64,000 nucleotides of DNA from Amphiscolops sp. MND2022 (Eukaryota), in NCBI GenBank assembly GCA_964187785.1, contig OZ076409.1, positions 61,134,001 through 61,198,000 on the forward strand. Reading direction: 5' to 3'. Both the position numbers and the translations under genes were made by a program. Of the stretch, positions 37,313-64,000 are shown piece after piece. Position 1 is the stretch's first letter. Each line of letters opens with the position of its first letter. Below the pieces are notes generated by a model that worked only from the letters and a program-made list of their open reading frames with translations, searched no databases and was not told where the DNA came from.

Positions 37313-37324
37313 CGTTCATTTTTT

Positions 37325-38925: not shown

Positions 38926-41900
38926 AAACTTTCAATTTTCAAAAACAGTCTTATTTCTGAATTTGTTTTCTCGCTTCAACTATTTGGTTTCTCATTCTGT
39001 TGGTTGAATTGAATTTATAGAACACATACTTGGTTTTGGCACGAGATAAGTTGAGTGTTAATATAGACTACAAGGGTTATTGTGAATAGGTTACTAGAAC
39101 CGTAAGAAACTCAAGCAAGTTATCAACCAGTCAACTACTGCTGTTTGTAGCTACAAACATAGAAATTGACTGGCAGTAATAAACTAGAATTCTCAGTTAT
39201 ATAACGAAATTTATTCTCTTATTTATCTTGACCACCTGAATTTTCAGGAATTTTCGTTTGCTATATAGCATCTGTCTTTTCTAGTTATCTACAACGATTT
39301 TTAAAATTACAAAGCAAGTCAGTTGATCGAGCGAAATGTAAACTCAGTTTTCGTGAATCCGCACTTGGTAGGACATGAGGCCGTTTTTCAATAGCACAAG
39401 ACTTGCACTTAATACATGCGGTCGTAATTTTACTCGCACAAGGTCGGACCCGCACTTGGTAGGACATGAGACCTGTTTTTACTAGCACAAGGTCGAACTA
39501 ACAAAATGGCAAATGAAAAACCAAATTAGTTTTTGAAAAATAAAAATGAAAAGAGCTTCATCAAACATGAAATTAAAATTGTTTGGGAAAGTTGTCAAAA
39601 GCATTCAAAATCCAAAAGACTAACTGAAAATGTGTTAAAATTACTGACAAAAACGTGAGTTTAATTGTTTAACCGGGTATTCGGCTTTTCGTAATATATG
39701 AAAATAATTTCGCTATGTTGAATGGAACTAATTCCGTTTTTGTAATTTGCTCTTATATAGTATTCGCTACGTGAGTTTGGCGTTATTTGATTAACTTAAA
39801 ATTGCTGCTCTTTCAACCGAGTTAGTGTAGTAGTTAATCACGCTGTCAAGCTCATCATTTGTTAGCGGCAGCTCGTTACAGTATACGCAATTATATGTGT
39901 CTGAAGGTGAACCGGTAATTGCATTTGCGTGTTGTACGATGCTTGACACTATCTAATTCGGTTTTTTAAAGCCCCGAGAAAATCCTTACAGAGAATGTTT
40001 TCGGCATTCTTATTCCCAATGTTATTTGGAAATTCACCAATGTTTTCATTTTGGTTGTTTGACTCGGCTTAAAATAGCAACGCTCGGTGGTTCAGAATTA
40101 TAAGGTGGTTGGGAATTATAAAATGAAATCAAATACTCCCCAACTGGAACAACGTTTGAAACAATCAACTAGTTCCTTTGAATTAAATTCATCAAATTAG
40201 TTTATTGCTTGGAATACTGTAAGTCGGACTTAAACTTTCAAAAACCAAAACGTTATGCGCATTTGGAAAATCAGGCACATTCACAAATTTATTAATTATT
40301 TAATAATTATAATCAAACCCCCCCCCAACTGGAACAACAATGAAAATTTAAAACCTCGATTTTACCGAACGTTGAACTTTATTAGTTAATTCAGTTCGTT
40401 TTTTTGAAGTACAGTTAATATCAAATTATTGTTCGGTATACGTGAGAAGAATATAGAATTCGGTCTCTATATCTTGTTTTTGTATTGAAAAGGATTGCAG
40501 TTCTGGAGAATATTTTAAATGAAAAATAAATTGTTTTGAACAAGTAAAAGGAAAATGAACTATTGATCAAATTGATTTTTTAAAATACATGTACCAATCA
40601 AATACCCGCCCCCCCACCCCCTCAATAAAAATATCTTTGATTTACATTATTCATAAAATTTAATTTAGGATTCATTTATTCAGTTTACTTTTTGACAACT
40701 GTTCTTATAGAAACCAAAAGGCATAAAATCCAACCAGTTATTTCTTAAATCGGACCATGTCATCTATTTCCAAGGTACACCTTGTTGGGAAATTCTCCCT
40801 CCCCCCCAAACACTAAAGCTGTTTGATCTCTGTTCCTTGGATATAATCGAAAAAAAAAGAAAAAAATCACGAGCAGCGCAGTTCGGTAACTACTTTCTGA
40901 TTACATTCTTTATTCAACTCGATGTTCGGGTTTTGAAACCAAGTTTTGTTTGAAATGAAAGGAGGCTGAGTTTGTATTCCGAGCTGCCGCTCTTTTATTG
41001 GGAGTCAACTTTCTTGGTTTTGTCGACGAAAAAAGGAGTGCGGTGGAAATTCTACTAGTTGAACGATGCAGCGTCGTGCAAGCAATGTTTGTTTATGATT
41101 CTAACAAAGCGAGCTGCGGAGTTCAAAGCGGTGACTCATGTGACTCATCGCTTCTTCCAGCGCAGTCGCCATTCAATAGCCACTCTCTTTATCATTCAGT
41201 TGCGTTCGCTCTCTCAATCAAAATTTGAATACCTATCGTCTACTCGCCTATTCAAATCACAATATTTCCACCGATATCAGTGATGATCATTTTTCTTTTG
41301 GTTTCAATGTTTCAGTTTTCTCATTTGTTTCGAAAAGTGAAGTAAAGTTTTGAATTTTCTTTTCGACGATATAATGGTTGCACTCAAGGACGTACAAAAT
41401 TGTATTTAAAACTTTGTTTTCAAATTCAGAATTGAAAACTAAAAAAATGATCATCACTCATTCTTGGAACAAGATATGCCTTTACGCTGCACTCACTGCG
41501 CGAAGGAATTCCAAGCCAATCAGAAGTGGTTGTTCAGTCGCCATCAATCAAGATGCCTGGGTTAGTAAACAAAGATTTTGTACCAAATAACATAAGAGCA
41601 AATAACATAAAAGCGAATTTCTTTCCATTAAACGTAAAAATGAAATTAGTTTCAAAAAAAATCCAAATACCCGGTTAAACAATCGAACTCACTAAATTCT
41701 CATACTTTTTCAGTGAATGTCTTTTGCATTGTGAATGCTTTTGAACACTAAAACTTTCGGATCTTTTCTGTTAATTCCCCCACAGAGAAAATTATGAAAC
41801 ACCACCCCCCCCCCGTAACAGAGATGAGTTTCAGTTGCTGTTAGAGTTAAAAAAAGGTAGAGTAATATAGAGTAATAAAAACTGGGGGGAATTAAAACGG

Positions 41901-42594
41901 TAGGGGGGATTAACAAAAGATCCAAATTTTCTCGTAAACAATTTTATTTTCATGTTATTTGAAACTAATTCAATTTTTATGTTATTTGCTCTTGTGTTAT
42001 CTGGGAATTCACCGTAAACAAAAATTATTGAACAAACCATCCCCCTCACCGCCACCACCAAAAACAGTCAAAAACAGCTTGTGAAAAAAAATTGTACCTG
42101 GATTTAAATAAAATTGAAGGTTCTTGGTTTGCGTCCAAGCCTCTGTTGAAAATTGGAATGCTTGATCATTCATTTGCAGGGCTGTCCAAAAATTATTTCA
42201 TCAATCATCAATTTATCGATAAAAAATCAATCAAAATTTATCGATCGTAAAAATCAATCATCAATTTATTGATAAACTCATGAGATTGTGTTTTCCAAAT
42301 CAGTTCTCAGGTTTTCACACGATTCTGTTTTTAAGGCCAAAGAACACGAAAAGCTCAAATCATTTTCCGCTGCACTTGCCAACTATGTGGGTTAATTTGC
42401 GCAAGCACGACCAAATTGCAGCAGCATGTTGCTAAAAAGACTTGTCAGAAGCGACAAAAAGAAGCTGTGGAACAAGGAGTTACACCCAGTGAGTTTCCTT
42501 CACCGCCTCCAAGTAAGTTGTTTGCTTTTTCAATCTTTATTTTGTTAAATATTTTTTATTTTAATCTTGTTTTACTAGGCTCAGGTATTTTTCA

Positions 42595-43260
42595 AATCTC
42601 AAGGCGCAGTCAGTCTCAATTCCCAGCACCGGGCGTTGCTTTTTCCCGAAACTCAAGGTGTAGTCAGTCTCAATATCCAGAACCGGGCGTTTCTTTTTTC
42701 TTCGAATCTTAAGGCGCAGTAACAGTCTAGTTTGTTAGCACCGGGCGTTGTTTTTTTGTTCGAATTTTAAGGCACAGTCATAGTCTCAATTTCCAGTACC
42801 GGGCGTTGCTTTCTTCTTCGAATCTTAAGGCGCAATCATAGTCTCAATTTCCAATACCGGGCGTTGCTTTTTTCTTCGAATCTTAAGGCGCAGTAACAGT
42901 CTAGTTTGTTAGCACCGGGCGTTGCTTTTTTGTTCGAATTTTAAGGCACAGTCATAGTCTCAATTTCCTGTACCGGGCGTTGCTTTTTTCTTCGAATCTT
43001 AAGGCGCAGTAACAGTCTAGTTTGTTAGCACCGGGCGTTGCTTTTTTGTTCGAATTTCAAGGCACAGTCATAGTCTCAATTTCCAGTACCGGGTGTTGCT
43101 TTTTTTCTTCGAATCTTAAGGCGCAGTAACAGTCTAGTTTGTTAGCACCGGGCGTTGCTTTTTTGTTCAAATTTTAAGGCACAGTCATAGTCTCAATTTC
43201 CAGGACCGAGCGTTGTTCTTTTTTTCTAATCTTAAGTTGCAGTAACAGTCTAGTTTTCAA
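42595..43260. repeat. About 58-bp satellite, 11 copies of two mostly alternating subunits, ACCGGGCGTTG core
   Basis: TCTTAAGGCGCAGTAACAGTCTAG and TTTTAAGGCACAGTCATAGTCTC units alternate. Confidence 0.9.
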
Positions 43261-43415
43261 GACTTATGTTGTTTGCTATTTGGGAATTAACCTTTTTTAA
43301 AAGGTCTTCAATTACAGAAGCTTTCGTAGAACCTATGTATCGTTCTTGAAATAAGAGTAATCTCATTTCTTGTCTTCAGTTTCCAATTGTAGTTTATTTT
43401 CCTTTCCGTGACGCA

Positions 43416-43637
43416 CAGGGGCGGTGTTTGAAATTTCTCAACGGGGGGCATGTTAGTGCTGCTTAAAACGTTTGCAAGGCAATCAATGAAATTTCAACCC
43501 ACTATTCCTAACAGCAAGTTTGAAAATTTTGATCCCAAACATGGCTAAAAACCTAAAACAGAAGGGGGTTTCTTCCTTTGCTGTTTTTCAGGGTTAAATT
43601 CTGAACGAGGGCACCCCCTCGTGTAAAGTCATCACTG
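43416..43637. mobile_element. Possible hAT-type MITE (222 bp)
   Basis: CAG...CTG ends, near-identical 8-bp flanks GTGACGCA / GTGACGCT; TIR imperfect. Confidence 0.5.
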
Positions 43638-45309
43638 GTGACGCTGGACACTTGTGTATAGTTTTTTAGGAAAGGAGCAAAAAAGCATGAAATCAACTTT
43701 TGCACAACACATTTTGTGTTAATGTCCTATATGCGGTCGTAATTTTACTAGCACAAGGTCGGACCCGCACTTGGTAGGACATGAGACTTTTTTACCAGCA
43801 CAAGGTCGAACTAACATAATAGCAAATAAACTAAAGGTTTCAAATTAAAAAAATGAAATGCTTTTCAGGAAACAATAAAATTGTTTACGAGAAAGTTTTT
43901 GTGGTCAAAAGCATTCACAATTCAAAACACTCACTAAAAATGTATCAACATTAGAGACAAAATTCGTGAGCTAATTGTTTAACTGTATTCGGTTTTTTTA
44001 AATGTTTTTATGAAACTAATTTTGCTTTTTCGTTGAATGGGACTAATTTCGTTTCGTTATTTTCTCTTATATGCTATTTGGCACGTAATCTTGCATGATT
44101 AAGTTAAAACTGCTTCTCTTCAAACCGAGTTAGTGTAGTGGTTAATCACGCTGTCAAGTTCATCATTCGTTAGGGGAAGCTCGTTACAGTATACGCAATT
44201 GTATGTGTCTGAAGGTGAACCGATAATTGAGTTGCAAATGAGTGTTGAGAGCTGCTTGACACTAACTCAGTTTTTTTTAGTCCTGACAAAATCCTTTCGG
44301 CTAATGTTTTCATATTGGTTGTTCATTAAAATAGCAACGCTCAGTGGTTAAGAATTATAAGGTGGTTGGGAATTATATAATGCAGAAAATAATATTATCA
44401 ATTGGTTTGATCAAATCTCCCCAACTGGAACAACGTTTGAAACAACTAATTCTTTTGAACTAAATTCATGAAATTAGTTTATTGCTTGGAATGCTGTAAG
44501 TCGGACTTAAACTTTCAGAAATCAAAACGTTATGCGCATTTGGAAATTCATGCACATTCACAAATTATTATAATCAAACCCCCCCAACAGGAACATTGAA
44601 AAATTAAAACTTCGATTTTTTTGAACGTTGAACTTGACTTCATGATTAGATAACTCAGTTCATTTTTTGAAATACAGTTAATTTCAAATTATTGTTCGGT
44701 ATAGGAAGTTTTAGGAAGCTTTAGGAAGTTCTCGTCCCCTTAAAACTTGAAATATTCAAATTGACCCCGCAAACTGAAATAACATTAAATGCTTGATTTT
44801 ACTAAACAATGAAAAAAAATTGATTTGATTAAATTGATTTTTTTCAAATACATGTATCAAGATGGACAATATATTCAATATATTTTTGCTAGCCAATTTT
44901 CCAATCACAAAACGAAAGTGTCACAAAAGGTTGGGATAAAAATTGTTGCTTCCCTTTCAAATACAATCTTTTGACCAGATTCAACCAAGCGTTGTCCCGA
45001 GTGATATATGAAAACCATTATATCCCTTGGGTCAATATCCAGGTGATCTATGTTTAGCGTGTTTCCTGTAGAAACTTCAAAAATCAACAGTTGCTCTTTC
45101 CGTTCAAAGTTTAACGCCCAATAACAGTCTAGTTTCCCAGCACCGGGCGTTGCTTTTTGTTCAAATTTTGGGGCCGAATACCTTTCCAAATTTTTTCCAG
45201 CACCAGGAGTTGCATTTCTGCTTGGCTGTCCAAGTGTATAATAAACATCAGTTTGTTTAAAATTAATGCTTGTAAAACTAAATTAATTAAACTAACTTGT
45301 ATAAAAAGA

Positions 45310-48130
45310 AATGTAGAATGTTCGACCTTCGACTATGATTTTTACCCTCTTAGCAATTGAAAACCCAGCAGCACAGGTCGAACATGAACGACATTGCAGT
45401 TGCATGATCGTTTCTGCTTTAAAAAAATTTTGTTTTTACTCTATTTTCTTTTATTCAAAATTTTTCGAGAGAAAATCCTAACTGAGTCCTGGGTAGAAAA
45501 CATTTCGATAGTTTTTTTAAACTTGGTAGAACTCATTCCTTCTGTATGTGTGAAGAACATCATATACATAACAAAAACTTGGACGCTCTTACGGTTGGGC
45601 GCAATGCTCTTACTATATGAACACTACCTTATAGCAGGAGTATTGGCGACCAGACCAAATGTGTCACGTAAAATGATGTTTGTTTCGTTCTGGTCGGAAC
45701 GTTTTGTTACCGGAAGAGCAAGGGAGGGAACGATTCCTCGATTCATCGCTTTCAACATTTTCGAGCCCAAGACCCACTTGTGTGCTTCAATATAGTTCCA
45801 ATGAAATGAACACGGTGCAGTCTTAGTCTGAAATTGTAACGACCTTTTTATCAAATTGTCACAATACTTTTCATTAGATGAATGAAACCACATGAAGAAA
45901 TTCTGGTGGTTTGAACAAGCGTTTACGTTTATTTTTTGAGTCTGTTCTACTCGAAATAGGTTGTTACCTGTAGTAATGGTTGAAATCCTTTGTCGACTCC
46001 TCGTTCAACATTTTTGAGACCAAGACCTTCTCGCTTCATTCAAAAAAGTTCAATGAAAGAAGTCTGATTCAGTCTTCGTCAGAAAGTGTTACGTTATGTG
46101 TTTACAGAAGTCTTTCGTAGAACCTATGTATCATACTCGAGAAGAATCGCAATATCTGTTTTCTTGTCTTCCGTTTTCAAGTGTAAACAGTTCATTTTTC
46201 TTTCTTTCACGCGGGACTTTTCATTTTTCTAATCACAAAACGAAAGTGTCACGAAGGGTTCGGATAAAGTTGTTGCTCTTTCGAATGCAATTTTTTGACC
46301 TGATTCAACTAGACGTCGTCCCGATTGATATATGAAAACCATTATATCCCTTGGGTCAATGTCCAGGTGATCAACGTCGAGCATGTTTCCTTTAGTACCT
46401 CTCTGATAGAAACTTGAAAAATCAATATTGAAAACAAATAGGTTCTGAGAGCAAATTACATCGTAGTTGATACTTTGAATAAACTAAGTTTCTTTTAGGT
46501 AGACTCAGACTCTTATCACCAGACAGTCGTCCGTCTGAAGAGTCGTGACAACAAGGCGCGAAAATTTTCTATTTCCAGCACCGGGAGTTGCTATGTTTGT
46601 TCAACTCTTCAGGCACAATAACAAACTCGTTTTTCTAGCACCGGGCGTTACAATTTCCGTTCAAACTATAAGGCTCGATAACAGTCCAGTTTTCCAGCAC
46701 AGGGCATCGCTTTTCTAAATGAAAACAATACTGCGCAAAAACCCAATCTTTTCCGGCACCGGGCGTTGCTATTTTTGTCCAAATTTTAAGGCGGAATCAC
46801 ATTGACATTGTGTTTTTTTCAGCACCGGGCGTTGCTTTTCCTGAACGGTTGTTCGGTTACATAAAAACATCAATTTGTTTGAAATTAAACCTTGGTAACA
46901 TTTGAAAATGAAAGAAGGGCAAAACGCTGACGCGCGGTCCGGAAGTTTTACGAACACTCGTTAGGAAAATTGCTGTGATTTTGTTTTCCCCTAATTTTCA
47001 AACCTTTTTGTCCGAAAAGACCAAATGTCTTTTTGTGATAAAGGCGCCTATTTCAAAAGAAAATTTCTCAGCAATAAAATCTAATCAAAATTTTCTTTTC
47101 AAACATATTTCAAGTTTCGGGTGCTGCTTTTTCACTAGCTCTTTTTCAGATTAAAGTACAGTAAAGATGTAGTAATCACCAGCACCTCGCGTTGCTAGTT
47201 TGAAATGATTAAGGTGTCAAGTTTCAAATTGACGCTAGAATTCTCAAAAAATGCGATGCAATCAAGTCGAACCTCGTCAATTGGTTCCGAGCCCAATTTT
47301 TGTCGACATAAAATCACGAAATGAGATAAGCGATCACGAGATTCATTGTGTGCTGTGGTAATCACAATTAGGGGCAAAGGTCGAACTCCTGTAGAATGTT
47401 CGACCTTTCACTATGATTTTCACCCTTTCAGCAACTGAAAACTCAGCAGCATAGGTCGAACATGAACGCCACGGCAAGTGCGTGATCGTTTCTGCTAAAA
47501 AAGTTAGATTTTTTCCTCTTTTCCTTCATTTTTTCTTGATTTTCCCAAGAAATAAACCAAGTGGGTTCTGGAGAAAAAGTTTTTCGATAAAATTGTTACA
47601 ACTTCGTAGAACTCTTTCCATTTGTACGTATAAAGAATTTCAAATGAACATCGAACCTCGGACGCTCTTTTAGTTGGGTGCAATGCTCGGACTATATGAA
47701 CACTACACTATAGCAGGAGAGTTGCTTCTTAGATCAAATACGTCGCGTTGAGCATTTTTTTTCGTTCCTGCGCGGAAAATTGTGTTGAAGGAAGTAAGGG
47801 ATGGATCCTTTTCGAAGCCGGCACTTCCTTGTTTTGTTCAACATGGTTTCCTTGAAAGACACATGGTGCAGTTCTAATCTGCTCGACATGTTAAATTTTA
47901 ACATTTTGAAAGTTTGTTACAATGATTTGTTTTGGTTGAATGAATCCAGGTGAAGGAATTCTGGTAGTTTAATTGAGTGTTTGATGGTTTTTTTAATTTC
48001 TGCTCCACTCGAAAAACATTGTTACTGGTAGTAAAGTTGATATCGTTTCTCGATTCTTCGTTCAACATTTTTGGGACCAAGACGAAGTTCAATGAATGAA
48101 GTCTGATGCAGTCTTTGTCAGAAATTGTTA
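45310..48130. repeat. About 0.75-kb diverged direct duplication (45310-46090 and 47390-48130)
   Basis: Shared TGTAGAATGTTCGACCTT..CTATGATTTT, GGTCGAACATGAACG, GCAATGCTC..ACTATATGAACACTAC blocks. Confidence 0.75.
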
Positions 48131-51100
48131 TGCTGTGTTTTTAAATTTCAACCTGGACTGTTTTTTCCTGCAAGTGGTGGTTGGAAATACAGACTATTCT
48201 TCAATATTTTGAGAAAAAGATCCTGTGTTTCTGAAAAAGATTTCAATGAAAAACTCAGAAAGTGATTTTCGTCAAAAAGTGTTTCGATACTTCTTTTTTA
48301 ATTGAATACATAAAACGAAATTCAGGGAGATATGTTAGAATAACCTGTCTCTGGCATAGTTTGACAAGCCCTGTCCTGAATAATATATAAATAAATACCA
48401 ATATAGTATTCATGACAGTGGCTAGTTGAATTGTGTCGCGCTTGTTTTAACCTCATTTTTGTAGCACTGGGCGTTGCTTTTTCTTCGAGTTTTAAGGAAC
48501 AGTCTCATTCTCCAGCACCGGGTGTTGCACCGCATGAACAGTGACTAGATTACATCTAAGATTGATCGATAAACTTCGATTATAACCAACTTTTTTACTG
48601 GCACCAAGTCGAATATTGTAGCATTCTTTTTGGCTTCCGTTTGATTCCTTCGCATAACGAGTCTTATGTTTCAGAACGCCAAAAAGGTATCTTCGAGTGT
48701 GAATTTTGTGGCACGACAACGACTCGAAGTTTTGATCTAACGCGGCACAAGAAAATTACCATCTTGCTCCAGCCACAACCAGTACTTCCCAAACGGCGAC
48801 AACTTTCACGTTTTTGGAACAAAAGCCCACTACATCCTCTGGTGCAGTTGAGGAAAGTGCAAATCTTGTCGACCAAAGAGCAGTTTTGGAACCGTTTGTT
48901 CCAGAGACCCCAGAACGACGATCTCTCGCGGATGAGAGCCCTCCTTTCTCAAGTGACGAGTCGCTTCAATTTAAACTGGAAACCCTTGCTTCTCTTGGAG
49001 AGAGAAGTGAAGTCTCATCCGAAGAAACTCTTACGGGTGCTGAAGCGGTTGACGTTCAAGAGAGAGCTGAAGATTCAAAAAAAACACCTCCGAGGACAAC
49101 CGAAGTCGCGGTCGAGGAACAGCTGGAGACTGCCGTGGAGGGCGTCGCTTCTTACTCAACAAACTTCAGTTCGCTTCCCCCAATTGGAGTCAAAGTTGGT
49201 TCTGTGGAATTCCAGCAGCATGTGTTTGCAACAGCACCGCCTGCCACAAATGATTTTGATGTGCTGAATGTGGACGATATTAGATCCAAGTTTTGCAACG
49301 GGAGCCCTTCAAAACCTGTTGTTATACGCCAGTGTACCAACAAACTTCCTGGTATCGCAACTCCTCCTGGTGAAAGCTTGACGTCTTTTCGTTGTGTAAC
49401 AGAGGGAATTCCAGGGGAGGTCAAAATTAATGTCTGTTTCTCTTCGATTCAAGAAAATGAAGATGAATTCACTCTGGAGGAGTTTCTTGAGCACAATGAA
49501 GACCGCAGCCTTGAGCCTGAATATCATCCGATGAATGTGATTGACTTCAACGCGGATTCAAAGAGCGGGGTGGTCCACCGGTTTTGTTTGCCCAATATAG
49601 TGACGGACATTTCCTTTGGCCATTGCATGAAGAATTCTATGAGCCCCAAAAACCAGTTGGCATTTGATTCCACATCAGGAATTAGTGACTACCTGCTGAT
49701 GTCAGAAGCTGGAGCGCAAACTAACTGGCATCAGGACTTCACGGGCACATCCGTTTTCTACATTTTGGCAAAGGGCCAGAAACACTTCTTTGTTGTGGAG
49801 CCAACCGAGGAAAATCAAAAGCTTTTTGAGGAATGGCTTGCAAGCGGTAACAGAAAGTAAGTGAGACTTTATTCAAAGGCACATGATCAGGAGCTTTGCT
49901 TGCGGTATAAATGTTCTGAAAAATAGGTACAAATTCAAAAGTAATTTTTAGGTTTTTTCTTCAATTTTTAGAACGTTGGAGAAGCATCAATGATCGATTG
50001 CTTTTTCGTTCGAATCCCAAAAACACTCTCGTTTTCCATCACGGCGTTGCTTCTTCATCTTAAATATGAAGCCGCAATAATTAATTTTTTTCCAGCACCG
50101 GGCGTTCCTTTTTTATCTCAAATTTAGGTCGCAACAATTGTTACTTTTTTTCCAGCACCCAGCGTTGCTATTGATCGATGGTATTAATCTACCACCGATT
50201 TTTATATATGACAACTATGTGCGCGATGAACGAACGGTAGTGAATTTTAGATCCCTATGACCAATTCCTGGGTTAATTGTTGCTTCTTCAACATGCTCTC
50301 TGTTTCAGTTCATTCTTCTTCGACTTTCACCGGGACGTGACAACGCATCAGATAGTGCTAGAAAAGGGCGATTGTCTGTTCTTACCCAGTCAATGAATCC
50401 ATTTTGTGTTCACTCCGGAAGAGAGCGTGTCGTTTGGCTGTAACTTCATTATGGAGAAGCACATGTATCGGAGCGAACAAGGTTTCCAACCCTCCTTTGC
50501 ATTTCCTCACTTTGAAGCCTTGGTTGTCATATTCCTCTACAGAGAGTGGTCATATCGTCATCGTTCAGAGAGCACTGTCAGTAAAGTTGAGCTGAGGAAG
50601 ATGCTGGCTATCATCAAGGCTGACCAACGTAGACACCCCAAAGGAAAAGAGCCCTTCGAGAGCCCCTGGGAGGTTTTCCTCTACATGTACTGCGAATCCA
50701 CTTGGGACTTCCACTGGGACGAAATAGAATCTTGGGTCCAACAAAATTGAACAGAAAATGGGAGCGTGACTAGACCAATGAAAACTTTGGCTTTTCTTCA
50801 ATTCGAAGCTGACATTGATTTCTTGAGAACTGTTTGCTTTCAAAACTGACAACATTGGTTCAAAATTTTGTTCTTTCTTTTCTCGCTAAAACAATGAATC
50901 ACAGTATTTTGGCTCACTAATGTTTTTTCCGGATCAAAAGTAGACACCATAAATCCGCAAAGTATTAGATTTTCTCGATTGAATTTTCTCCTAGTAGCAA
51001 CACTGTGATTGAGCACATTTTTTCATTCTTCCTAAATTCTAAAACATAATCGAACGGTTTCAGTTGAACACTAAAAGGTTTACTCATTTATTATAATGTA

Positions 51101-52729
51101 GAGTTCATATTTCATTGGCTTTATTGATGTTATATTTTGGTTGAACTGCTCTGTGTGACAAAACCCTACCTTTCTTGCTCTTCAGAAAACCATGTCTACT
51201 TGTAGTGCTGCGCGAAAAACTGAATCGTGGAAAGACTTCCTCTATTCTGATCCGGAGGGTTTCATTGTCCAGACCGTCAAATTCGCCAATGGAACGACTG
51301 GAAGAGGGCTTTTCGTGAAAAAGCAATTTGAAGCGCAAGAGTTTCTCCTGAGTTTTGGGGGGCCGAGGAGAGCAACTCAAGTCGCCAACTTTGACTACGT
51401 GATGGAAGTTCAGGAGGGAAAAGACACAGTGTTCATTGACACTTCCGATGAGACGAACTCTGGCTTGGCGAGGTTTATCAACGACAAGGACAAATCAGTT
51501 GCCGCCAACTGTCGAATGAAAAAGGTTCATGACGACGAGGGCAGACCACATTGCATCTTCCTGGCAACTCGTGTTATTCTTCCAGGTCAGTTTAATTTTT
51601 CAAATTGTGGAACAATCTTCTGTAATGTTTCCCAGAATTCTCAAGTAATTGAAACCCAGATTTAGTTGCTACCAAAAAAACAGTCAAAATGACAGTCAGA
51701 AATGTTTTGAGAAATCAGTGACAGTGTTCGAATGTAAAAGACTTAAACTTAGCACCTTAAACGTTCATATTGGAAACTAATTTCATTTTGACAGTTTGAG
51801 ATTCAAATACAAATTTTGTTCAAACTATGTCCTTCAAACGCAAATTTTCTTCGCCTTAAAATTTAAAAGAATAACTTTCAACTGACAGGTAGCGGCCCCT
51901 TGAGGAGGATTGAACACATGGTCCCTTACTTCCATACTTTTGACACATGACCACGCTCTAGTAACTTTTCAATTCCCACAAAGTATGTCCCACTAATTGA
52001 TTCCGAATAGTTTATCGATTGAAAAAAGTGCTAAAAATTAAGATAGAGTATAGTTATCCGCCTGTCAGGTGTTGGGTGGTGAATGAACCAAGTTGAGAAC
52101 TTGCCATACAAGCTGTTGATTTGAGTTTGATCAGGAGGGGGACAACCACTTATTTACTTGGCGAATAGAAACAAACAAGATTGCGGTTAAAGTCCCATCA
52201 ATGCTTAGTAAATTAGTTTCAGGTCCCACCGAGTGCATTTTCGAAAACGTCCTATTTATTTTTTAAACAAAAATAAGCGAAGCGTCAATAAACCCTGCCA
52301 TCCCCATGGGGTGTTGGGTGGTGAATGAACCAAGTTGAGAGCTTTGCATACAAGCTGGCAATTAGGAGAGAGCAATCAGTAAATTACTTGGTGATTGAAA
52401 ACAAACACGACTGCGTTAAAAAGTCCCATCGATGCTTAGTAAAGTACAGGGTAAGGCCACACCAAGTGCAATTTGAAAAACGTTCTATTTATATTTCAAA
52501 CATATTGTTCTTGCATATAAAATCGCGTTTTCTGTTCGTTTTTGGTACTGTCGCGGAGCCCAAGTTAACTTCTAATTAGGCCCTTTTGAACGTTTTTTGG
52601 TTTTTTCTTTGGAAAATAGGATTATCATGGGTCAACATTGAGCATTAGAGCGGATGTTTTGCAGCAAAGAGCCATATATAACGTTGAAAAATACCTTTCG
52701 TGTAACTACAGGGAATGAAAAATAATGTT

Positions 52730-53155
52730 TAAGTTCGACCAAGTGGTAATGAAGCTCAAACACCGGGCGTTGCTATTTTAAAACACAAACTAGTAGTGTT
52801 TATGTTCGACCAAGTCCCCATAAAATTCAAACACCGGGCGTTGCTATTTTAACCAGGTAGTGATAAGTAGTAGTGTTTATGTTCGACTAAGTCGTTATAG
52901 AATTCAAACAACGGGCGTTGCTATTTTAACCAGGTAGTAAAAAGTAGTAGTGTTTATGTTCGACTAAGTCGTTATAGAATTCAAACACCGGGCGTTGCTA
53001 TTTTAACCAGGTAGTAAAAAGTAGTAGTGTTTATGTTCGACTAAGTCGTTATAGAATTCAAGCACCGGGCGTTGCTATTTTAACCCGATAGTGAAAAATA
53101 GTGTTCATGTTCGACCAAGTCGTGAAAAAATTCACGAACACCGGGCGTTGCTTGG
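52730..53155. repeat. About 77-bp satellite, 6 copies, combining GTTCGACCAAGT and CACCGGGCGTTGC
   Basis: Cores near 52760, 52831, 52908, 52985, 53062, 53139. Confidence 0.9.
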
Positions 53156-55754
53156 AATAGAGTCCACGAGCTGTATAAGTTTTTTCTGTCCTTTCCACTG
53201 GCACATGAAAAATCATTTATATTATTATAAATGGACATCACTGCTTTCCAGATGCCAGATTGTTTCATTATACGGAATGTATATAAACATCTCAGTTGGG
53301 ATAACTCACTAACACAGGGCGTTGATATTCCAATCACTTTTGGCAAAAGTTCCAGGGATGAGTAAGTACATAATTTGATAGGCTCAAATCAAGTTCCCTA
53401 TTTGAGAGGTGTTCAAGTTTCTCGATTCCAGGTGACGTCTTTAAACCAGGATGGGGCTTAGCATAAATCCCAAATCTTATCCATAATTTCTAAATTGCAT
53501 GACATTGAGCAAAATTGTTTTCAAACGGTGAATTCCCAAATAGCATAAGAGCAAATAAAAACACGAGAAAGTTTTAGTGTTCAACATTATAGAAAATTCA
53601 AAGGATTCACTGAAAAAAGTATTAAAAATTACAGATAAAATTACGTGAGTTCAAATGTTCAACCAAGTATTCAGTTTGATTTTTATTTTATAAGAAATTA
53701 ATTTCAATTTAATGTTATTTGAAACTAATTTTGTTTTTGTTATTTGCTCTTGTTATTTGGTACGTAATCTTTTTAAACAATCCCTCGAAATGGACTTTTT
53801 CTGGTAACCGCCAGAATTTTGGCCGTTTCCCTAAACGTTGAAATTTAGTAAGCTTTTCATTGCGCCAAAAACGTTTATTAAACGCTTCTGATTGGTTGAA
53901 AATTGAATTAGGGAAAAAACAAAGTGATTGAGTTTGTGTGCTAAACACCAATGAACTATTTATGATAATGTAATCAGCTATGTTCTTATGCACCTAGTAT
54001 GCACTTAAGTGCAGCAAGGCAGCGAAGCGGAGAGACAATACATTACTTGGCAAGCAGCCCGTTTTGACAAAAACCGACATGAAGTGGCGCGAAGGGCTGC
54101 CGCGGAATGACGGTCGACTCCAGCAAAAAATTGAAAATATTTGCTAAATTCAAATTTTTGGCGCAATGCAGAAAAATTGAATTAGTGTAACGCAATCGTT
54201 ATTGGCATTGGACCATCGTATCCATCTATTTGCATATACTGTAACGAGCTGTCCCCAAAAGATGAGCTCGACAATCGCGCGATAGCGGGATTGTCCACAA
54301 TACTAACAACACTAACATAAGATAGAACCTTTGAAGTTAAAACAACCAATTACTTTACCAAAAATATACCTTTGTGCGAACGCGTTTCAAAATACCGCAG
54401 CTTTTTTGCCTAAAATTACAAAGTTCAACAACAAATAAGTTAAGAGAGTGCCAGAAATACGAAACATCAAGGGAAGTTTTAGAACTTTTGGTATCTCTGA
54501 AAATGTTTCATTGGAATTTCTGCAACAAGAGTTCCAAAATTAGAACAATGGTAACTTCGAAAAAAGTTTATCAAGTTAGCATTTTTTCCAACCATCACAT
54601 TGTTGAAAAAATATCCGTGAAAATTGTTTCGTTAACCATTTGCCCCCAAGTCTGAGGATGCCAGTACCATTAGATTGAACAAAAAATTGGTTTCGAAAAA
54701 TTGACATTTTTTTAATTACAAGATATACATTGGTGGGTCTCAGCGACAACAGTAGCAACGCGTGGTGCTTGAACATCATGATCAATCAAGTGCAAGTCCG
54801 ACCATGTGCTTGTAAAATCAGTCATGTCCTACCAAGTGCGAGTCGACCTTGTGACTGTAAAAACACGACGACAAATTTTACTAACTGCCAGTCCGAACAT
54901 CTGCTAGTAAGAAACAGCATCATACTGAGTCCGTTTTACATGAATCGAAATACATTGTCCAAAAATAGAATAAGTTTTGATATAATTCAGAAATATTTTT
55001 GACTCATTTGAAAATTTTCATAGTTTCAATTTTGAAAGAAAAATTTTGATAGATTTCGAAGCGCCAAAAAATGAAACTGGAGAAAACAACAATATAATAT
55101 TGTCACCAGCGGGTAGCAAAAAACTTTTTACGTGGGCACAGGAAAATTGATATCTAGTTTTAGAAAATGGAATAAGGGGAAGCTTAAAAGGAACACAAGT
55201 GTTTTTCTTCGCAGATAAAGAAATGAGTTTTACTTGAAAAATTCACGTGCAACCTTGTTTAAGGAGAAGAGCTGCGATATGATTATGGCTTCCCAAATGC
55301 CGAGTAGCGAAAAAACACCGCGGTTCCCGAAAGTGAGACACCAGTTAATTTGGAAAACCCAAATTCTACAATAGAACTCGTGGTTGCAACGGCACAAATG
55401 CTTACACTTACCGAAAATGAAATGAGGTTAACTGCAGCCGGACAAGCGCCATGCGAAGAATACGTTACAAACAAATCAGCTGTTACAAAGGAAGAGTTGT
55501 CGAAGCCGAAGACCAGAAGTAGAGTTGTTTTAAAACACCAGGTCCAGAAAATAGAAACGTCAAAACCAGAATCGAAAGCCAACATTACACAGAATATTGA
55601 TTCCGAATCAAAAACCGAAGATGAGAAGTCGGAACAGACAGCCGGTGTAGTAAAAGGTTTCTCGAAATGCGTGGTGGCACTCAGAGCAACTGCCTCAGGA
55701 AAGGATGATTCAAAACAACCAACTACAATTGGAGTAGCCGAGGCAGCTGTCGTA

Positions 55755-57035
55755 AAAAAACTTGAAGCCATGCCAGCTGTCGCAAAGAAAGTTGCTCCTA
55801 TGTCACCAACTAAAAGTGGAGAAGCCAAGCCAGCTGTCGGAGAGAAAGTTGCTCCTAAGTCACCAACTAAAAGTGCAGAAGCCAAGCCAGCTGTCGGAAA
55901 GAAAGTTGCTCCGAAGTCACCAGCTAAAAGGGGAGAAGCCAAGCAAGCTGCCGGAGAGAAACTTACTTCAAAACCACCTGCTAAAAGTGGAGAAGCCAAG
56001 CCAGCTGTCGGAGAGAAACTTGCTTCAAAACCACCAGCTAAAAGTGGAGAAGACATAACAGCTGTCGGAGAGATAGTTGTTTCGGAACCATCAGCTAAAA
56101 GTGGAGAAGCCAAGCCAGCTGCCGGGGAGAAACTTACTTCAAAACCACCTGCTAAAAGTGGAGAAGCCAAGCCAGCTGTCGGAGAGAAACTTACTTCAAA
56201 ACCACCTGCTAAAAGTGGAGAAGCCAAGCCAGCTGTCGGAGAGAAACTTGCTTCAAAACCACCAGCTAAAAGTGGAGAAGACATAACAGCTGTCGGAGAG
56301 ATAGTTGTTTCGGAACCATCAGCTAAACCTGGAGAAGCCAAGCCAGCTGCCGTAGAGAAACTTACTTCAAATCCTCAAGCTAAAAGTGGAGAAGCCAAGC
56401 CAGCTGTCGGAGAGAAAGGTGCTCAGAAACCACCTGCTAAAACTGGAGGAACCAAGCCAGCTGTCGGAGAGAAACTTGCTCAGAAACCACCAGCTAAAAG
56501 TGGAGAAACCAGGCCAGCTGTCGGCGAGATAGTTGTTCCGAAACTACCAGCTAAAACTGGAGAAGCCAAGCCAGCTGCCGGAGAGAAAGTTGCTCAGAAA
56601 CCACCCGCTAAAAGTGGAGAAGCCAGGCCAGCTGTCGGCGAGATAGTTGTTCCGGAACCACCAGCCAAACCTGGAGAAGCCAAGCCAGTTGTCGGAGAGA
56701 AACTTGCTCAGAAACCACCAGCTAAAAGTGGAGAAGCCAAGCCAGCTGTCGGAGAGAAAGTTGCTCAGAAACCAACAGCTAAAAGTGGAGAAGCCAAGCC
56801 AGCTGTTGGCAAGATAGTTGTTCCGGAACCACCAGCCAAACCTGGAGAAGCCAAGCCAGCTGCCGGAGAGAAAGTTGCTCAGAAACCACCAGCTAAAACT
56901 GGAGAAGCCAAGCCAGTTGTCGGAGAGAAACTTGCTCAGAAAGGAGCAGCTAAAAGTGGAGAAGCCAAGCCAGCTGTCGGCGAGATAGTTGTTCCGAAAC
57001 CACCAGCTAAAAGTGGAGAAGCCAAGCCAGATGTT
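55755..57035 (+). repeat. 57-bp coding minisatellite (19-aa KSGEAKPAVGEKLAQKPPA), about 22 copies
   Basis: Exact 57-nt period within exon 2 of the SET-YR gene. Confidence 0.92.
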
Positions 57036-59575
57036 GCTGATGAACATGCTTCGGAACTGGCATCTGTCATTGACGCGAATGAGCCGTCCGTCGCAGCGTT
57101 GTCTTCTAAAAGTGGACCAGTGAGATCATCAACCATTTGCGGAGCATCAAGACCAGCTGAACCGCTTCAACAACCAACAGCAAGTGGAGATAAAAAAGGC
57201 TGTCAAAAAGCCGACCCTGACATCAACGAAACAGCCGCAAGCCAAGAAGCCGAAGAACATAGACTCAGCTATCGAGGAATCTGTTCAAAGGTTGACGACA
57301 AACAAATACCAGAAAAAGGAAGAAAGTTCTTCAACTCCGGATACTTCTCTACCTCACAAAGTAAACCTAGTTTTCTTTTGGTTCACTTTCCTTGATAAAA
57401 ACCACAAAAGTTTTTCAGTAGTCGTTTTTCGTCTCGCATAAAAGTTCATCACATTTGGTCGAACATACGTCGCATGTTCGACCTAGCTCTCCAAAATTCA
57501 GAATGCCGGAGCCCCTTGGTTTCTTTCGTGAGACGTCTACTGGTCAAAAAACAATTGTAGAAAAAAGATGTTTTGGAATAAAGCGAAAATTAATTGAAGG
57601 CGGAGTTTCTAAGGTTTTGCTAATGAAAATTGCTGTTTTTCTGTTGAAGTTTTACCGAAAACATTTCAATTGGTTGATAGTGATCTTCAACTTAGTGTGT
57701 TGTTTTGCAGTTGACACCCAGGAAGGGAACAACCAGAGCTGTAAAACTGCTCGCCAAGGGCCGTCAATACCTACAGCCGAAACCGGAAGCTGAAGAAAGC
57801 GAAGAATCCGTCTCCGAACAATGCTCAAGCGACGAAGAATCGCAGCCCCCATGTTCCAGTGGAACAACTGAAGATTCTAGTAAAGATTCGTCCACCTCGT
57901 CGAGCGATCGATTCACTCCCGGAAGTGATGATGACACGGACGATGAGGATGTGAGCAGCGAATACCCATCGGAAGATGAGCCATTGGAACGAACAAGATC
58001 AAAAACGAAGAAATGCGGTCCTCTGGTTGGAATAACCAAAGAAGTTGTTTTGGATGCAGAAGGTATCAGTCAGATTAGTGAAAGTTCTTACAAGTCAGCT
58101 ACAACTTCAACGGATACCCAAGAAATGGACGATCAGGAAATGGAACTTGTAATGGAGAAGTACGTCCAAAAAACAGGACAATGCCAATTCAATGCTAAAT
58201 TTCTTCGGAAGATCAAAATTCAAGTCGCCCTGAATAAACACAGAAAAACAAAATGTTGTCCTTACTGTCCCTTCACTGAACCAGAAAATGCCACTATGGT
58301 GCAAAAACTGACACGTCATGTGGATAAATTTCATCGCAAAGAACTCCGAGTTTTAAACCTTCAAAGGATTAACAAGGAAATTGAGGATCTTGAAGAAGGC
58401 AGGGAAACTGTTCAAACTGAGACCGAACTTAAAAAACTGAGGAGAGAGAAGGACAATCTCACTCACTTGATTGTCTATGAAGGTCTCTATAAATACAACA
58501 TCGCTGTTTTCAAGAAGTGCAGCGAGACCCAAAACTTCGAGAGCAAATTGATTGTTGCCAGGGATCCAACTGTAGCTGAAAATCCATCTGCTTATGACTT
58601 TGCCCCTTGTCCAAGTTGTCTCGGTTTCTTCCAGAAAAAAACAATGTATCGACATAAAACAGATTGTCCAGCAAGTGGAAAGATAGCTTTGAGCAATACA
58701 GGAAAAAATATCAAGGCTGCTACATTTGCATTGATGCTCGAAGTGAAAGCTACCAAAGACACCCCATTTGAACAATATGTTTTCACACGAATGAGACATG
58801 ATGAATATGGGAATTTTGCAAGGCGTGATCCTCTGATACGATACCTTGGCCAGTGGTACTTCGATAAGAGAAAAGCTGACGAGGGTTACCTTCAAATCAA
58901 CGACAGAATGAGAACAATGGCCAAGCTTGTACACAAACTCAATTGCTCATACTTGATTGAAGTCATTAATCCCGAAATGTGGCCAAGAGTGAAAGAAGCT
59001 GTTATGACATTCGAAAAGTCCTACAGGATTAAAATGGGATCAATTCTGAAAACAGCTGCTCAGTTCTTACGCAACCAGGCTTGGATGTGGAAAAAGAAGT
59101 CAATATCGGAAACAGCAAGAGAGTTCTTGAAAATTCTAGATAGTGAGTGGGCAGCAATTTCGGCACCAGCAAAATATGAGTTAGTTTTTTCTTTTTTAAC
59201 ACTTCATGTCACCACGAAAAACGTCTCATACTGACTTTCAAATTCAACAAAAACAAAGAAAAATGATTTTGCACTTCAGAAAAATGCAGATGTACGTCGT
59301 TTGACAACTTTTTAATTTTTGTAGTATCTTTCATTTAATTCCGTTCTCGCTACTATGCCTGAGCGGATGTCGCGCCCTTAAGCGTCAAATTGACAATGTT
59401 GAGTCTTCCATTGCGGCAACAGTGCAGGAGGGAAGCTGTCGTGAATTATGACAATCCCACGTGGGTGCATATCCGGATAGCATCAACTTTTTTTCAATGT
59501 TTTCAGCTTTAATTCCGTATTTCCAAAATGAGTTTTTTTTCATATTGGCCTTGTATGTTTTGATTGTTTTAACAG

Positions 59576-60350
59576 GATGCTGAAGAAACAGAACGAGTCG
59601 ACACACCTTGTCATTCCAACTTCGGATATGATGCGCTTCGGAGAAAAGATTGGGGCAAAAATTTCGGGTTTGCTGGCCAAAACGACTCACAACTACGCCG
59701 AAATGAAACAAATCGTGATTGCTGATCTTGTCAGTTTTAATAAGAAGCGAGATCGCGAAGTTTCGGGTGTAACACGAAAAGACATGATTCTCCAAAGGAA
59801 TCTGGCTTTACAGAGGGCACAAACAACGGATTACGAACTTTTTAAGCTCACAGAAGTTGAAATGATGTTCGCAAAGTACTACACGTTGCTGCGACTGCCT
59901 GGGAAAGGTGGAAAATTTGTTCCCGTTTTGATTCCACCGAAAACACTAGAAGTGATAGACATCATGAATAATGACGATAAGCTGAAAAGTGACAACTACT
60001 TCTTCCAAACAGAGGGAGGCGAACAATTCTACAGAAGCATAGATGTTTTGAGGAAATACGCTGAAGAGTTTAAGCTGCAAGACAAAAAAGTGTTCCGATC
60101 TACAAAGCTCCGCAAGTATCTTGCCACTGCAGCCCAGTTCTTGGATTTACCACAAAACCAAAGAGTTTGGGTGGCCGACTTCCTGGGACACGACCTGAAT
60201 GTTCACGACAAGTACTACAGGATGCACACTGATGCTGTAAACCTGGCAAAAATGACCAAACTATTATACATTGCGGACAAAGGCAAGGTCAAAGACGCCT
60301 ATCTAGAGAACCTTGACACACACCAGCCGACTTTGAATCTTGACGATTCG
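59576..60350 (+). CDS. Tyrosine recombinase catalytic-domain exon
   Basis: R (FNKKRDREV), K (PGKGG), TKLR in place of HxLR, H (FLGHD), Y (HDKYYR); no lesion in this exon. Confidence 0.88.
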
Positions 60351-62186
60351 GTGAGAATTTCTACTAATTTGACTTCAAATACTATTGCGAATAGGTTGAT
60401 AAGTTTGAATTCCAATTTTAATTTTTTTTCAATAATTTTAAAAGCTTCAGTTGAAATAGCAACGCCCGGTGTTTGAGAATACTTTTCACTTCGAATAGAA
60501 TTAACAATTAAAAAAGTGTCGGAGTTCAGTTTTTTGAATTCTTTGTTGAATTAGCAACGCCCGGTGTTTGAGAATACTGATTTCTCTTCGAATTGAATTA
60601 ACAATTGAACAAGTGTCGGAATTTAGTTTCTTGAGTTCTTTGTTGAAATAGTAGCATACGGTGTTTGAGAAGTTTGCTCTTCGAAAAGCTGCAAAGCAAA
60701 ATCACGTCTTCGTGTCATAATTTCCCCAAATTTTGAACTTTCCAGGATGCAGGTGAAGAAGTAGAAACTCCTGCTGATTCAAATCTTCCGAGTTCCTTGA
60801 AGGCGACTCCAAGCCGCAGCACATCACAACGAACCAAAGAGAAAGGGAAGAAGGATGAGTCTGATGAAGATGACGATGACGATGACGACAACAACGACAA
60901 GGAAGAAAAGTCAGACGATGACGCTTCATTCCAAGCAGATGAAGTTTCCCATGGTTCTGAGGAAGAACCCGAACAAAGAAGGCCCAAGAAAAAGAAGAGA
61001 ACAACTGCTGGAAGGCCAAAAGGTGCCACCAGACGACAATGGCCGAAAGATCAAGAAAAGGCGTTGAGAAAGGAATTTCGAAAAGAAATGATGGAAGGGC
61101 GTCTGCCCGGTCAAGATGTCTGTTTGGAAGCAATGAAGAGGTATCCTCATGCACAAAAGTGGCAAGATTTCAAGGACAAAGTGAGGAATATGCAGGTCAG
61201 CGATGCCAGAAAATGAAAACTGTTGGAAATTTCAAAGACTTTCAGTTCAAAACTTTTTTATTTTTAGGAAATGGTATTTATATCGACAATTTTTATATTT
61301 TGTGAACGCTGAATTGACTTAACTGTTTTGAATTTTGAATTTTCTGACAGCTTGTTCAATAAATTTGAAATGTTTATCGGACTTTGTTGATAAAGTTATT
61401 GCTTCTGCTTATTCAGTTTTGTGTTTTCTGAATTCACTTTTGCGTCCAAATATTTCCTTATTTTGTTTAAGTTAGAAATAGTTTTATTTTGTTCCTAATG
61501 TGTTATCAGAGGTGTGGCAGCGATAGCGGTAGCGAAAATCCTGCATAAACTAGCGATATCGATAGTTAGCGACAATATAAAGCGTTAGCGGACACTTTTA
61601 TTCGCTTAAAGAATTGAAAATTAACGAATGCAATATTTTATTGCGAATAACTTGACTCACTCATCCTCACTTGACTCACTCATCTTATTGGCTTTGGCTT
61701 GGCTTTTAGTTTCTTTCGAACGGTTATTCAGTGTAAAGAACGCAAGACGAACTAGATTTTGCCCAAAAATTTTCAAATTTTGTTACTTTTAGAGTACAAT
61801 TCTGAAATTTTTATATCTATGTTGAAAATCAAGATTTTTTAATCAGCAATGGGGGAAGGTTTTAATAAAAGAATGCGTGCAAATTGCCTAACTTTCACAG
61901 CAACAGGTAGAACAAAAAACTATAATTCGTCATAGACTGATTAGAAAAGGAGCAAAAAAGCATGAAACCAGCTATTGCACAACACATTCAAGTTTGTGTT
62001 AATGTCCTACCAAGGCATGTGGCTTTTTCTATCTTTTGTAGTCTCAGACAGTCTAAGATAGAATGTGCATGTTCGACCGCTTTTATGTGAAGGTTCGACT
62101 GTTTTGTTTGACCGGTCAATTGTGAGTGTAAATGTTCGACCTTATGCGGATTGTGCTGGCAGACCGACCAAGTGCGGATTCTCACA

Positions 62187-62981
62187 CATGTGTGTGTAGT
62201 CCTGTGTGGAGCCTTGTGTGTAGTCCTGTGTGGAGCCTTGCGTGAAGCCCTGTAATTGATAGCGAGAGTATAATTCATTAATAAATTGATATCTGATTGA
62301 TTTTTTATCTCCATAATTTAGATCATATTTCATATCATTTAGGAAGATATAAATTGGGCCCCAACTATTTATTGGTTTGTCAAATTGTGTATTACTTATA
62401 AAATTTTGAAGATCTGGGTCATTTAGATTGTATGAATTCCCATTCTCGAAAGTCATTGTTAAACCTTTGATTAGTACTTGTTGTGGGTTATGAGGATTAA
62501 TTGTGAATAAATTTGCGGAGCTGTGTGCGGAGCTACGCGGATAACCTTCTATGGCTTCTAAACTAAATTGACTTTTGTTTTTGTCATTAAGTAAATTAGA
62601 AACTGTTTTTACAATACTAGAATCAACCTGGTTGGAATTAACAAGACTTGTAAGAAGCTGATTGTTATGATTTGTAATTTCATTATATTGTTTTATTCCT
62701 TCTGTAATAGAATTTTGAAGAGTATTATTATTGTGTTCTATTGCTCTTGTCTGATTTTCAATTGCCTGTGTAACCCCTTGGGTTTGTTTGTCAATGGCTT
62801 GTAGTTGTTTTTCATTTGATTCCACCTGCTTTGTAGTAACAGGTTCAAAAACTTCTTCCATATCGTAGTGGAAGTCTTGCTTCCCTAGTTTCTCTTTTAA
62901 TCTTTCTTTGTGTAGTAAAGATTTTGTTTCTTGTAATTTTTTTAATTTTTCCAAGTCATCTCGGGTGTGAATTGAATACAT
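62187..62981 (-). pseudogene. N-terminal part of the split Polinton gene
   Basis: TAAATG start, EEVFEPVT motif and coiled coil, ends in TQGSTQDY repeats at the insertion boundary. Confidence 0.8.
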
Positions 62982-62994
62982 TTATTAGGTATAA

Positions 62995-63471
62995 TTAGTG
63001 GATTTTCCTCAGATACAGGCCTTTACTATTAGTTCTTGCGTTTCTGCCTTTACTCGACAAACCTTCGCGAAGCCCTTCGGCTTTGTATAGGTCCTTTCCT
63101 TGATGTACAAATTTAATGACCTCGGGTGCAGTTGCAGCAATTAATCGTGGATTTTTACTTGCTGCTGCAGTTCCAATATTTGCTGCTATTTCTAGTGCAC
63201 GGCCTGGGTTATTGAGTATTTTTTTTCCAACGTTTTTGCCCATTTTGCCCAAATGTTTAAAGAAGTCACCCAATCCTTCCCCATCTATTGTTCGCTCTGA
63301 TACAATTAGACTCTTATTTCTGTTACACACTATGCAGTTGCCGCGTAGTGTGTGTACGGGCCTACCAATCCGTATCACAGTGTTTGTTGTTTCTCCATAA
63401 ATATTTGTGGTGGGAGAATAATGTTTTCCACCAACACAATATGAATTATTTATAAATTTATTATAACTCAT
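62995..63471 (-). CDS. Polinton zinc-ribbon plus amphipathic-helix protein (candidate membrane-lytic virion protein)
   Basis: YCVGGKH..CIVCNRNKS then GEGLGDFFKHLGKMGKNVGKKIL. Confidence 0.65.
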   Translation of the reverse strand: MSYNKFINNSYCVGGKHYSPTTNIYGETTNTVIRIGRPVHTLRGNCIVCNRNKSLIVSERTIDGEGLGDFFKHLGKMGKNVGKKILNNPGRALEIAANIGTAAASKNPRLIAATAPEVIKFVHQGKDLYKAEGLREGLSSKGRNARTNSKGLYLRKIH

Positions 63472-63489
63472 TTATTATTATTAAAAGTA

Positions 63490-64000
63490 TTAAATTTTGA
63501 TAATTTGAATTGTGATGGTGAGTGTCTCCCCGTTAAAATCAACTGAATCATGATTAGAGTCCTCAAGGAAAAATTGAATGGTGTCCAGTCGTGTTTTGTT
63601 TATCAGCTTGTACAAAACACTTGTGGGTTCTTTTATAATTTTAAATCCGGGAGGTGCGCTTAAATTGAAAGAAAATAAAATTTGTTCTCGTATACCATTA
63701 ACAATTGAACCATCTACGCAGTCGCACTTCAGATGAACTTTGTCCGTGGTTGTTATCATGACTGGTTTTTCTGAAGTGTGAGTTCCGGATGGGTAATCAC
63801 GTTGTGTAAAACCCAGGACTTTGTTAAGTTCAGATTTAAAATGAATAGGGTTTGAGGTTGTTAAAACTGATTTCATTGATATTGTGTCGGGTATTATGTT
63901 GAATTCAATACTTAAAACTGTAAGATCTTTTTTTAATTTTGACTTATCATCTAATTCATAACCTGAATCAGTAATTATTTGTTTTATGGTATTATTTATT
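63490..64000 (-). CDS. Polinton minor capsid (penton-like) protein, 5'-partial
   Basis: LGF, KVHLKCDCVDGSIVNG, LFSF....PGFKIIKEP..VLY, DFNGETLTITI beta-rich signature. Confidence 0.78.
   Translation of the reverse strand, partial: INNTIKQIITDSGYELDDKSKLKKDLTVLSIEFNIIPDTISMKSVLTTSNPIHFKSELNKVLGFTQRDYPSGTHTSEKPVMITTTDKVHLKCDCVDGSIVNGIREQILFSFNLSAPPGFKIIKEPTSVLYKLINKTRLDTIQFFLEDSNHDSVDFNGETLTITIQIIKI

Follow-up and report, generated by a model that had tools for sequence, protein, structure and literature searches.

CryptonV elements are animal DNA transposons encoding a tyrosine recombinase (YR), and some of their families insert specifically in microsatellites (PMC8869645, citing Kapitonov and Jurka 2012). 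Cryptons of the A, F, I and S groups feature a 4-6 bp direct repeat at both ends (PMC3212892). Starships, giant cargo-carrying elements mobilised by a YR, are said to be unique to filamentous Dikarya (PMC13465315). Genes similar to KMT5A, the methyltransferase writing H4K20me1 (monomethylated lysine 20 of histone H4), number 65 in Hydractinia and 61 in sea urchin. They are dispersed, mostly have an N-terminal SET domain and conserved C-termini, and are turned on at genome activation; a DNA_BRE_C domain marks 3 of the 24 Hydractinia genes listed, and the authors view them as host enzymes (PMC10368294). Here we describe a mobile element found in a stretch of 64,000 nt (the window) of the genome of Amphiscolops sp. 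MND2022 (assembly GCA_964187785.1, contig OZ076409.1, positions 61,134,001-61,198,000, forward strand). The element resides in the genome in dozens of copies, is bounded by terminal inverted repeats (TIRs), and carries a gene in which a SET domain and a YR are predicted to be fused by splicing (SET-YR). SET-YR is probably the transposase of a giant, cargo-bearing, CryptonV-like element, which would insert at TG repeats and methylate nearby histones.

As known from its description in PMC8869645, CryptonV resembles the element in being an animal DNA transposon with a YR and a microsatellite target. Compared with that description, the elements analysed here are 31-56 kb in size, and feature TIRs, the SET-YR fusion, and a gene encoding a JmjC protein. 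Repbase entries for CryptonV may already record part of this. The A, F, I and S Cryptons share with the element the YR, the lack of a reverse transcriptase (no long open reading frame (ORF) or Pfam match for one was found within 29717-62184), and a proposed circular intermediate; a short direct repeat at the junctions may be a further similarity. In contrast, they are described as having no TIRs, which measure 21 bp here, and the text on them in PMC3212892 mentions neither a SET domain nor a microsatellite. Starships are similar in giant size, YR, cargo and, in some, inverted ends, and possibly in their short direct repeats (PMC13465315). The element is not assigned to them because DUF3435 was absent from 31 aligned YR members; moreover, its YR sits at the right end, reads outwards, and is fused to SET, whereas the DUF3435 captain is the first gene of a Starship. 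The Hydractinia and sea urchin genes are likewise dispersed and expanded, with a SETD8-type SET at the N-terminus and conserved C-termini, but were interpreted as host methyltransferases in a study which did not extend to element ends (PMC10368294). KMT5A/SETD8 differs from SET-YR, in which SET is N-terminal, reads ND at a key motif, is fused to a YR and occurs in many mobile copies; KDM2A and PHF8 differ from the JmjC protein, which has a C2H2 finger and is also found in many mobile copies. No SET-YR transposase, nor a giant animal YR transposon with a JmjC gene, is described in the literature covered, to which subscription journals and Repbase Reports do not belong. The element is not described in the relevant passages of PMC9406493, PMC5753468, PMC4455052, PMC13465017, PMC6681497 and PMC11131425. 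In sum, a real and widespread SET-YR fusion, the likely transposase, is associated with a demethylase-like gene on a giant element targeting microsatellites.

The SET-YR gene and the ends of the element are arranged in the window as follows:
51192-51585, plus strand: SET-YR exon 1, most of the KMT5A-like SET domain (GRG, RFIND)
51586-55263, plus strand: SET-YR intron 1 (phase 1, 3678 nt), which contains a 77-bp minisatellite and a small cargo-like ORF
55264-57360, plus strand: SET-YR exon 2, end of SET (EELRYDYG..W) and 19-aa Ala/Lys/Pro repeats
57711-59179, plus strand: SET-YR exon 3, acidic tract, two Cys/His motifs, helical region ahead of the catalytic domain
59576-60350, plus strand: SET-YR exon 4, YR catalytic domain with conserved R, K, R, H, Y
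60746-61216, plus strand: SET-YR exon 5, acidic tract and conserved tail, possibly Myb-like
29717-62184, plus strand: element of family A, about 32.5 kb including both TIRs, with the SET-YR gene at the right end
29717-29737, plus strand: left TIR (21 bp); the TG-rich target and 3 variable bases lie before it
62164-62184, minus strand: right TIR, followed by CACA and TG repeats
31123-60566, no strand assigned: 44 copies (at most 1 mismatch) of the 14-bp motif CACCGGGCGTTGCT, many in minisatellites

The preliminary description of this DNA had joined five exons through four GT-AG introns into one protein. Exons and introns were all found where it had placed them, the phases 1, 0, 2, 0 hold in copies with an open frame, and SET is indeed split by an intron of about 3.7 kb, the 3678 nt between exon 1 and the SET end in exon 2. 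The 19-aa repeats correspond to a 57-nt unit, iterated 22.3 times at 55764-57034. An AATAAA lies 142 nt past the stop codon in exon 5. The exons sum to 5206 nt; the earlier total of 5205 nt was reached by removing one extra A, but the window copy has no extra A and is short of bases instead. Translation of this copy into a single protein is blocked by a stop codon and a frameshift. The in-frame TAG at 55305-55307, 14 codons past the exon 2 acceptor and overlooked in the preliminary description, ends translation at codon 146; Trp is found at this position in 10/10 best-scoring copies and in all 9 readable copies of the youngest subfamily. The frameshift maps to a run of A residues at 57192-57197, which measures 6 in the window, 7-9 in other copies, and 8 in those in frame; part of this variation may reflect assembly error. 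In the column aligned to KMT5A EYHG the window SET has Phe, Tyr being found in 8 of 9 other in-frame copies. The window copy is a pseudogene, and can make neither the SET-YR nor the JmjC protein. The proposed fusion therefore fails for the window copy, but stands for the family, on the strength of open frames, conserved introns and fish models.

A search of the genome with the YR exon gave 633 candidates, of which 147 were scored matches. The same five-exon model was applied to 20 other copies, chosen rather than drawn at random: the 10 best-scoring ones and 10 of the youngest subfamily. The frame is open across all exons in 2/10 of the former (1668 and 1716 aa) and in 5/10 of the latter, one of these ten having no SET part in the stretch compared. 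In all, 7/20 copies have open SET-YR frames of 1668-1716 aa. Splice sites are conserved, in all but one case, across the 10 best-scoring copies. A SET exon lies at most 15 kb upstream, on the same strand, of 70/86 YR matches (at least 83% identity, among the matches listed). A sister family, B, is about 70% identical to family A in both SET and YR. All four introns are found at the same position and phase in 3/3 family-B copies. Intron 1 is nonetheless 438-455 nt long in these, and no alignment with its 3.7-kb counterpart in family A was obtained (score 30; shuffled sequences, 22-28). Models of fish proteins in databases are arranged alike, from SET through a low-complexity linker, Cys/His motifs, YR and an acidic tract to the tail. 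The SET motif precedes the YR motif in 104/128 related proteins, a set mostly gathered with a SET-bearing query and rich in isoforms. The closest library proteins are unspliced single-exon calls, uninformative on splicing. Open frames in 7/20 copies, introns conserved in the sister family and matching fish models together give good sequence-level support to a spliced SET-YR fusion in the family.

The SET domain was recognised in exon 1 by the Pfam hidden Markov model PF00856 (27.9 bits, cut-off 22.4), as had been anticipated. In both single-sequence and profile searches of PDB structures, KMT5A/SETD8 fill the top 14 rows. The RxxNH motif of KMT5A is not found in SETs of the family, which read ND. 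The position of the last residue is occupied by D in 120/132 aligned SET stretches and by H in none, though many of the 132 rows are isoforms of the same fish genes. Judging from this alignment, RFIND is a trait of the family, and D the normal residue. Other conserved positions are R (123 of 132), Y (127), R (128), N (126), Y (121) and Y (120); they align to residues of KMT5A which we take to be involved in binding S-adenosylmethionine (SAM) and in the active site. Between subfamilies, the SET exon differs by 14 synonymous and 2 non-synonymous changes (0.007 non-synonymous substitutions per site, dN, against 0.177 synonymous, dS); between families A and B the proportion of non-synonymous differences is 0.15, that of synonymous ones saturated. 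These patterns indicate that the domain is maintained under strong purifying selection. The doubt cast on its activity because of RFIND was misplaced, since D is the usual residue in the family and SET is under purifying selection.

The claim that exon 4 encodes a YR is upheld by the fold, and not by sequence families: a Pfam scan, DUF3504 and DUF3435 included, assigned no YR family to exon 4 or to the 31 aligned members. The alignment-based model of exon 4 has a predicted local distance difference test (pLDDT) score of 72.8 (35.7 for the single-sequence fold), and matches XerA, XerH, XerD, Cre and topoisomerase IB; for XerA/XerH the Foldseek E is 7e-4, and the best Z 10.0 (root-mean-square deviation 5.2, 193 aligned). 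R58 and R179 are conserved in 30/31 aligned members, K110, H205 and Y214 in 31/31. Their catalytic roles were assigned by spacing, and are presumably those of the canonical R-K-H-R-H/W-Y set, in which the first His position is T in this family. Between subfamilies, the YR exon has a dN of 0.017 and a dS of 0.126. A sequence profile of SET-less relatives found no match in PDB. Exon 3 matches the profile of relatives by hhalign (probability 99.1, E 5e-19), whereas a BLASTP comparison with one fish protein gave no match. The exon 5 tail is conserved. It falls in a Rap1-Myb cluster of the Atlas (0.76), but matches no Pfam family at E<=1 and no Myb structure in PDB, and the label Myb/SANT is a lead only.

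The preliminary description missed the main context of the gene, a mobile element of 32.5 kb with inverted ends, a target site and a JmjC gene next to SET-YR. The limits of the element are sharp. The right end is common to 10/10 copies, which match the window to about 62190 and then diverge; leftward, copies match to about 29710, and the left TIR was found in 5/7 copies followed. A 20-mer of the TIR has 170 exact matches in the genome (0 for the control), and inward TIR pairs, 32 among the first 100 matches listed, are spaced 30.7-42.9 kb. At the right, 17/18 ends read CACATGTG into TG repeats; at the left, 12/12 are preceded by TG-rich DNA. Other copies have unrelated flanks. Empty sites were found for 11/11 loci, the left flank running directly into the right flank, two across the exact site. 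The sequence (A)TGTGT is present on both sides of the element in the window, inside a TG repeat, so that the crossover point cannot be fixed. Recent movement of the element is suggested by two copies of a subfamily that reside on different contigs and share 99.5% identity over 21 kb. Elements of family B measure about 50 and 56 kb and have related ends. Their right-end word occurs 190 times, and is found 26-43 nt from a family-A end in 8 of the first 100 matches listed, so the two families stack at one target. No head-to-tail joint of two family-A ends was found in the assembly. Inward pairs of the family-B right-end word are also found about 19 kb apart (G000 C5:34087725-34106929, and similar pairs on C2, C5 and C7). 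One such unit of about 19 kb contains hardly anything besides JmjC and SET-YR, and represents a short form whose ends are symmetric. All 44 copies of the 14-bp motif in the window lie within the element ends (chance expectation 0.01), and only 0-2 copies are present in three family-B stretches; they are possible protein-binding sites. The 77-bp minisatellite in intron 1 (52726-53152) holds the motif along with the inner word of the TIR; the family-B end word likewise recurs inside the elements of that family.

In both families, a gene encoding a JmjC protein lies immediately upstream of SET-YR. In the window it includes:
48566-49856, plus strand: C2H2 finger, then the first half of a JmjC domain (KDM2/KDM7-like) that includes H-x-D; the frame is shifted in the window and continuous over 431 codons in another copy, c3
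50309-50750, plus strand: second JmjC exon with the third iron ligand His, acceptor predicted from sequence, stop in the window at 50394-50396

The gene is broken in the window copy. The closest solved structures are KDM2A and PHF8. H-x-D is kept in every A and B copy read; the third His is present in 8/8 family-A copies, and its pattern was not matched in family B. JmjC has 150 scored matches among 1218 candidates in the genome.

The YR protein would bind both inverted ends and excise the element as a circle, as expected from YR chemistry and the Crypton model (PMC3212892). The circle would then recombine, across the short (A)TGTGT core, with a TG repeat. Reinsertion would leave a TG target for the next insertion, which is proposed to account for the tandem arrays of families A and B. 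With less confidence, the tethered SET may monomethylate H4K20 at or near the element, which it would reach by means of its long linker of repeats and acidic residues, and the KDM2/KDM7-like JmjC protein may remove silencing marks; that the recombinase might write lysine methylation at its own sites had been proposed in the preliminary description. This last step leans on the substrates that we assume for KDM2 and PHF8. As a result of both activities, the element could stay expressible or accessible.

Several data weigh against the transposase model. No open frame was found in 13/20 other copies and in 3/3 family-B copies. SET is carried by 9/32 long YR relatives scanned, out of 2176 clusters (built at 50% identity) matched by the YR exon, and by 3/58 metagenome contigs, mostly short; JmjC was not found in these 58 contigs. 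H4K20 specificity is deduced from two matches, a weak one obtained with a single sequence (E 4e-5) and one obtained with a profile (E 2e-33). Splicing, the excision circle and enzyme activity are predicted, and none was observed directly. The leading alternative, although itself doubtful, retains the transposon and the fusion, but denies that SET is a histone writer: the domain would bind nucleosomes or SAM, or methylate a non-histone lysine, for example in the transposase itself. The ND motif, unlike that of KMT5A, is found family-wide, and purifying selection reveals function, not substrate. Many YR relatives have no SET, so the domain should not be needed for recombination. The conservation, in 120-128 of 132 stretches, of residues aligned to presumed SAM-binding and active-site positions of KMT5A argues against this view, as does the histone-demethylase-like gene adjoining SET-YR in both families. 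Ranked next, and improbable, is the view that SET and YR are adjacent transcription units or alternative products, resulting from polyadenylation in intron 1 or 2 and an internal start for YR. Intron 2 contains AATAAA in two family-A copies, the window and c3, but not in a third copy, c9, nor in 3/3 family-B copies. Three Met codons precede the first Cys motif in exon 3. Short SET-only models are known from fish, where some (197-208 aa) share a cluster with a fusion, and from Hydractinia (PMC10368294); such isoforms could however coexist with the fusion. Moreover, both families retain the phase-0 donor and acceptor of intron 2, and 7 copies have an uninterrupted frame over their whole length.

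The element might otherwise be an integrated virus, or a module of the Polinton-like element surrounding it, the YR serving as integrase. The large size, the many short ORFs of no assigned family, the insertion inside a Polinton-like element and the YRs found on some coral polintons (PMC11131425) fit this idea. It is nonetheless very improbable: ORFs of the element scanned include no capsid, polymerase or ATPase family, the capsid-like, ATPase and integrase matches all fall outside the TIRs, empty Polinton-like sites exist, other copies are not so flanked, and 121 pattern matches in viral contigs yielded no confirmed relative. Least credible of all is a spread by segmental duplication of domesticated host chromatin genes. 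Introns, purifying selection and the published interpretation of the Hydractinia and sea urchin genes as host H4K20 methyltransferases (PMC10368294) are compatible with it, but sharp common ends with TIRs, empty sites, copies on different contigs identical at 99.5% over 21 kb, and intact YR catalytic residues speak against it. SET-YR as transposase is the interpretation adopted here. In two metagenome YR relatives, P0182 and P0267, a CXXC finger or an OTU protease is fused to the YR in place of SET, which suggests that chromatin modules on YR relatives are swappable.

On architecture alone, the Hydractinia and sea urchin KMT5A-like genes may belong to this class of transposases. Tentatively, animals could have a Starship-like class of their own, with a histone writer on the transposase and an eraser beside it setting the chromatin state, and both these expansions and the fish SET-YR proteins would be its transposases rather than host enzymes. 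If so, giant cargo-carrying YR transposons, a type described so far mainly in fungi, would occur in animals, and the published expansions of KMT5A-like genes could alternatively be read as transposon genes. A writer-eraser pair on a mobile element makes testable the notion that transposons counter silencing enzymatically. Excision and insertion can be directly tested, given the defined 21-bp ends and the simple target, and a recombinase moving 30-55 kb into TG repeats may serve as a tool.

Other features of the window are:
33300-45800, no strand assigned: cargo region of short ORFs, several in common with family B or duplicated, two zinc-finger-like
29414-29716, minus strand: left half of an interrupted Polinton-like gene, which continues at 62185-62981

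No Pfam family above cut-off was found for the short cargo ORFs. Three of them are related and feature CxxC motifs (39794-39952 and 44123-44266, minus strand; 54186-54317, plus strand, inside the SET intron); changes among these are biased to third positions. Two other short ORFs, of no assigned family, are paralogous (34190-34588, minus strand; 38437-38925, plus strand). In family B the former retains about 90% identity, well beyond the 70% seen for SET-YR; this difference suggests that families A and B exchange cargo. The Polinton-like element split by the YR element spans 19000-29716 and 62185-64000, and includes pPolB-like ORFs, an rve integrase, an A32-like ATPase and a double-jelly-roll match; its flank has 1156 candidates in the genome. 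At the left edge of the window, a long ORF (1-1488) reads as what we take, from its motifs, to be the end of the integrase of a long terminal repeat retrotransposon.

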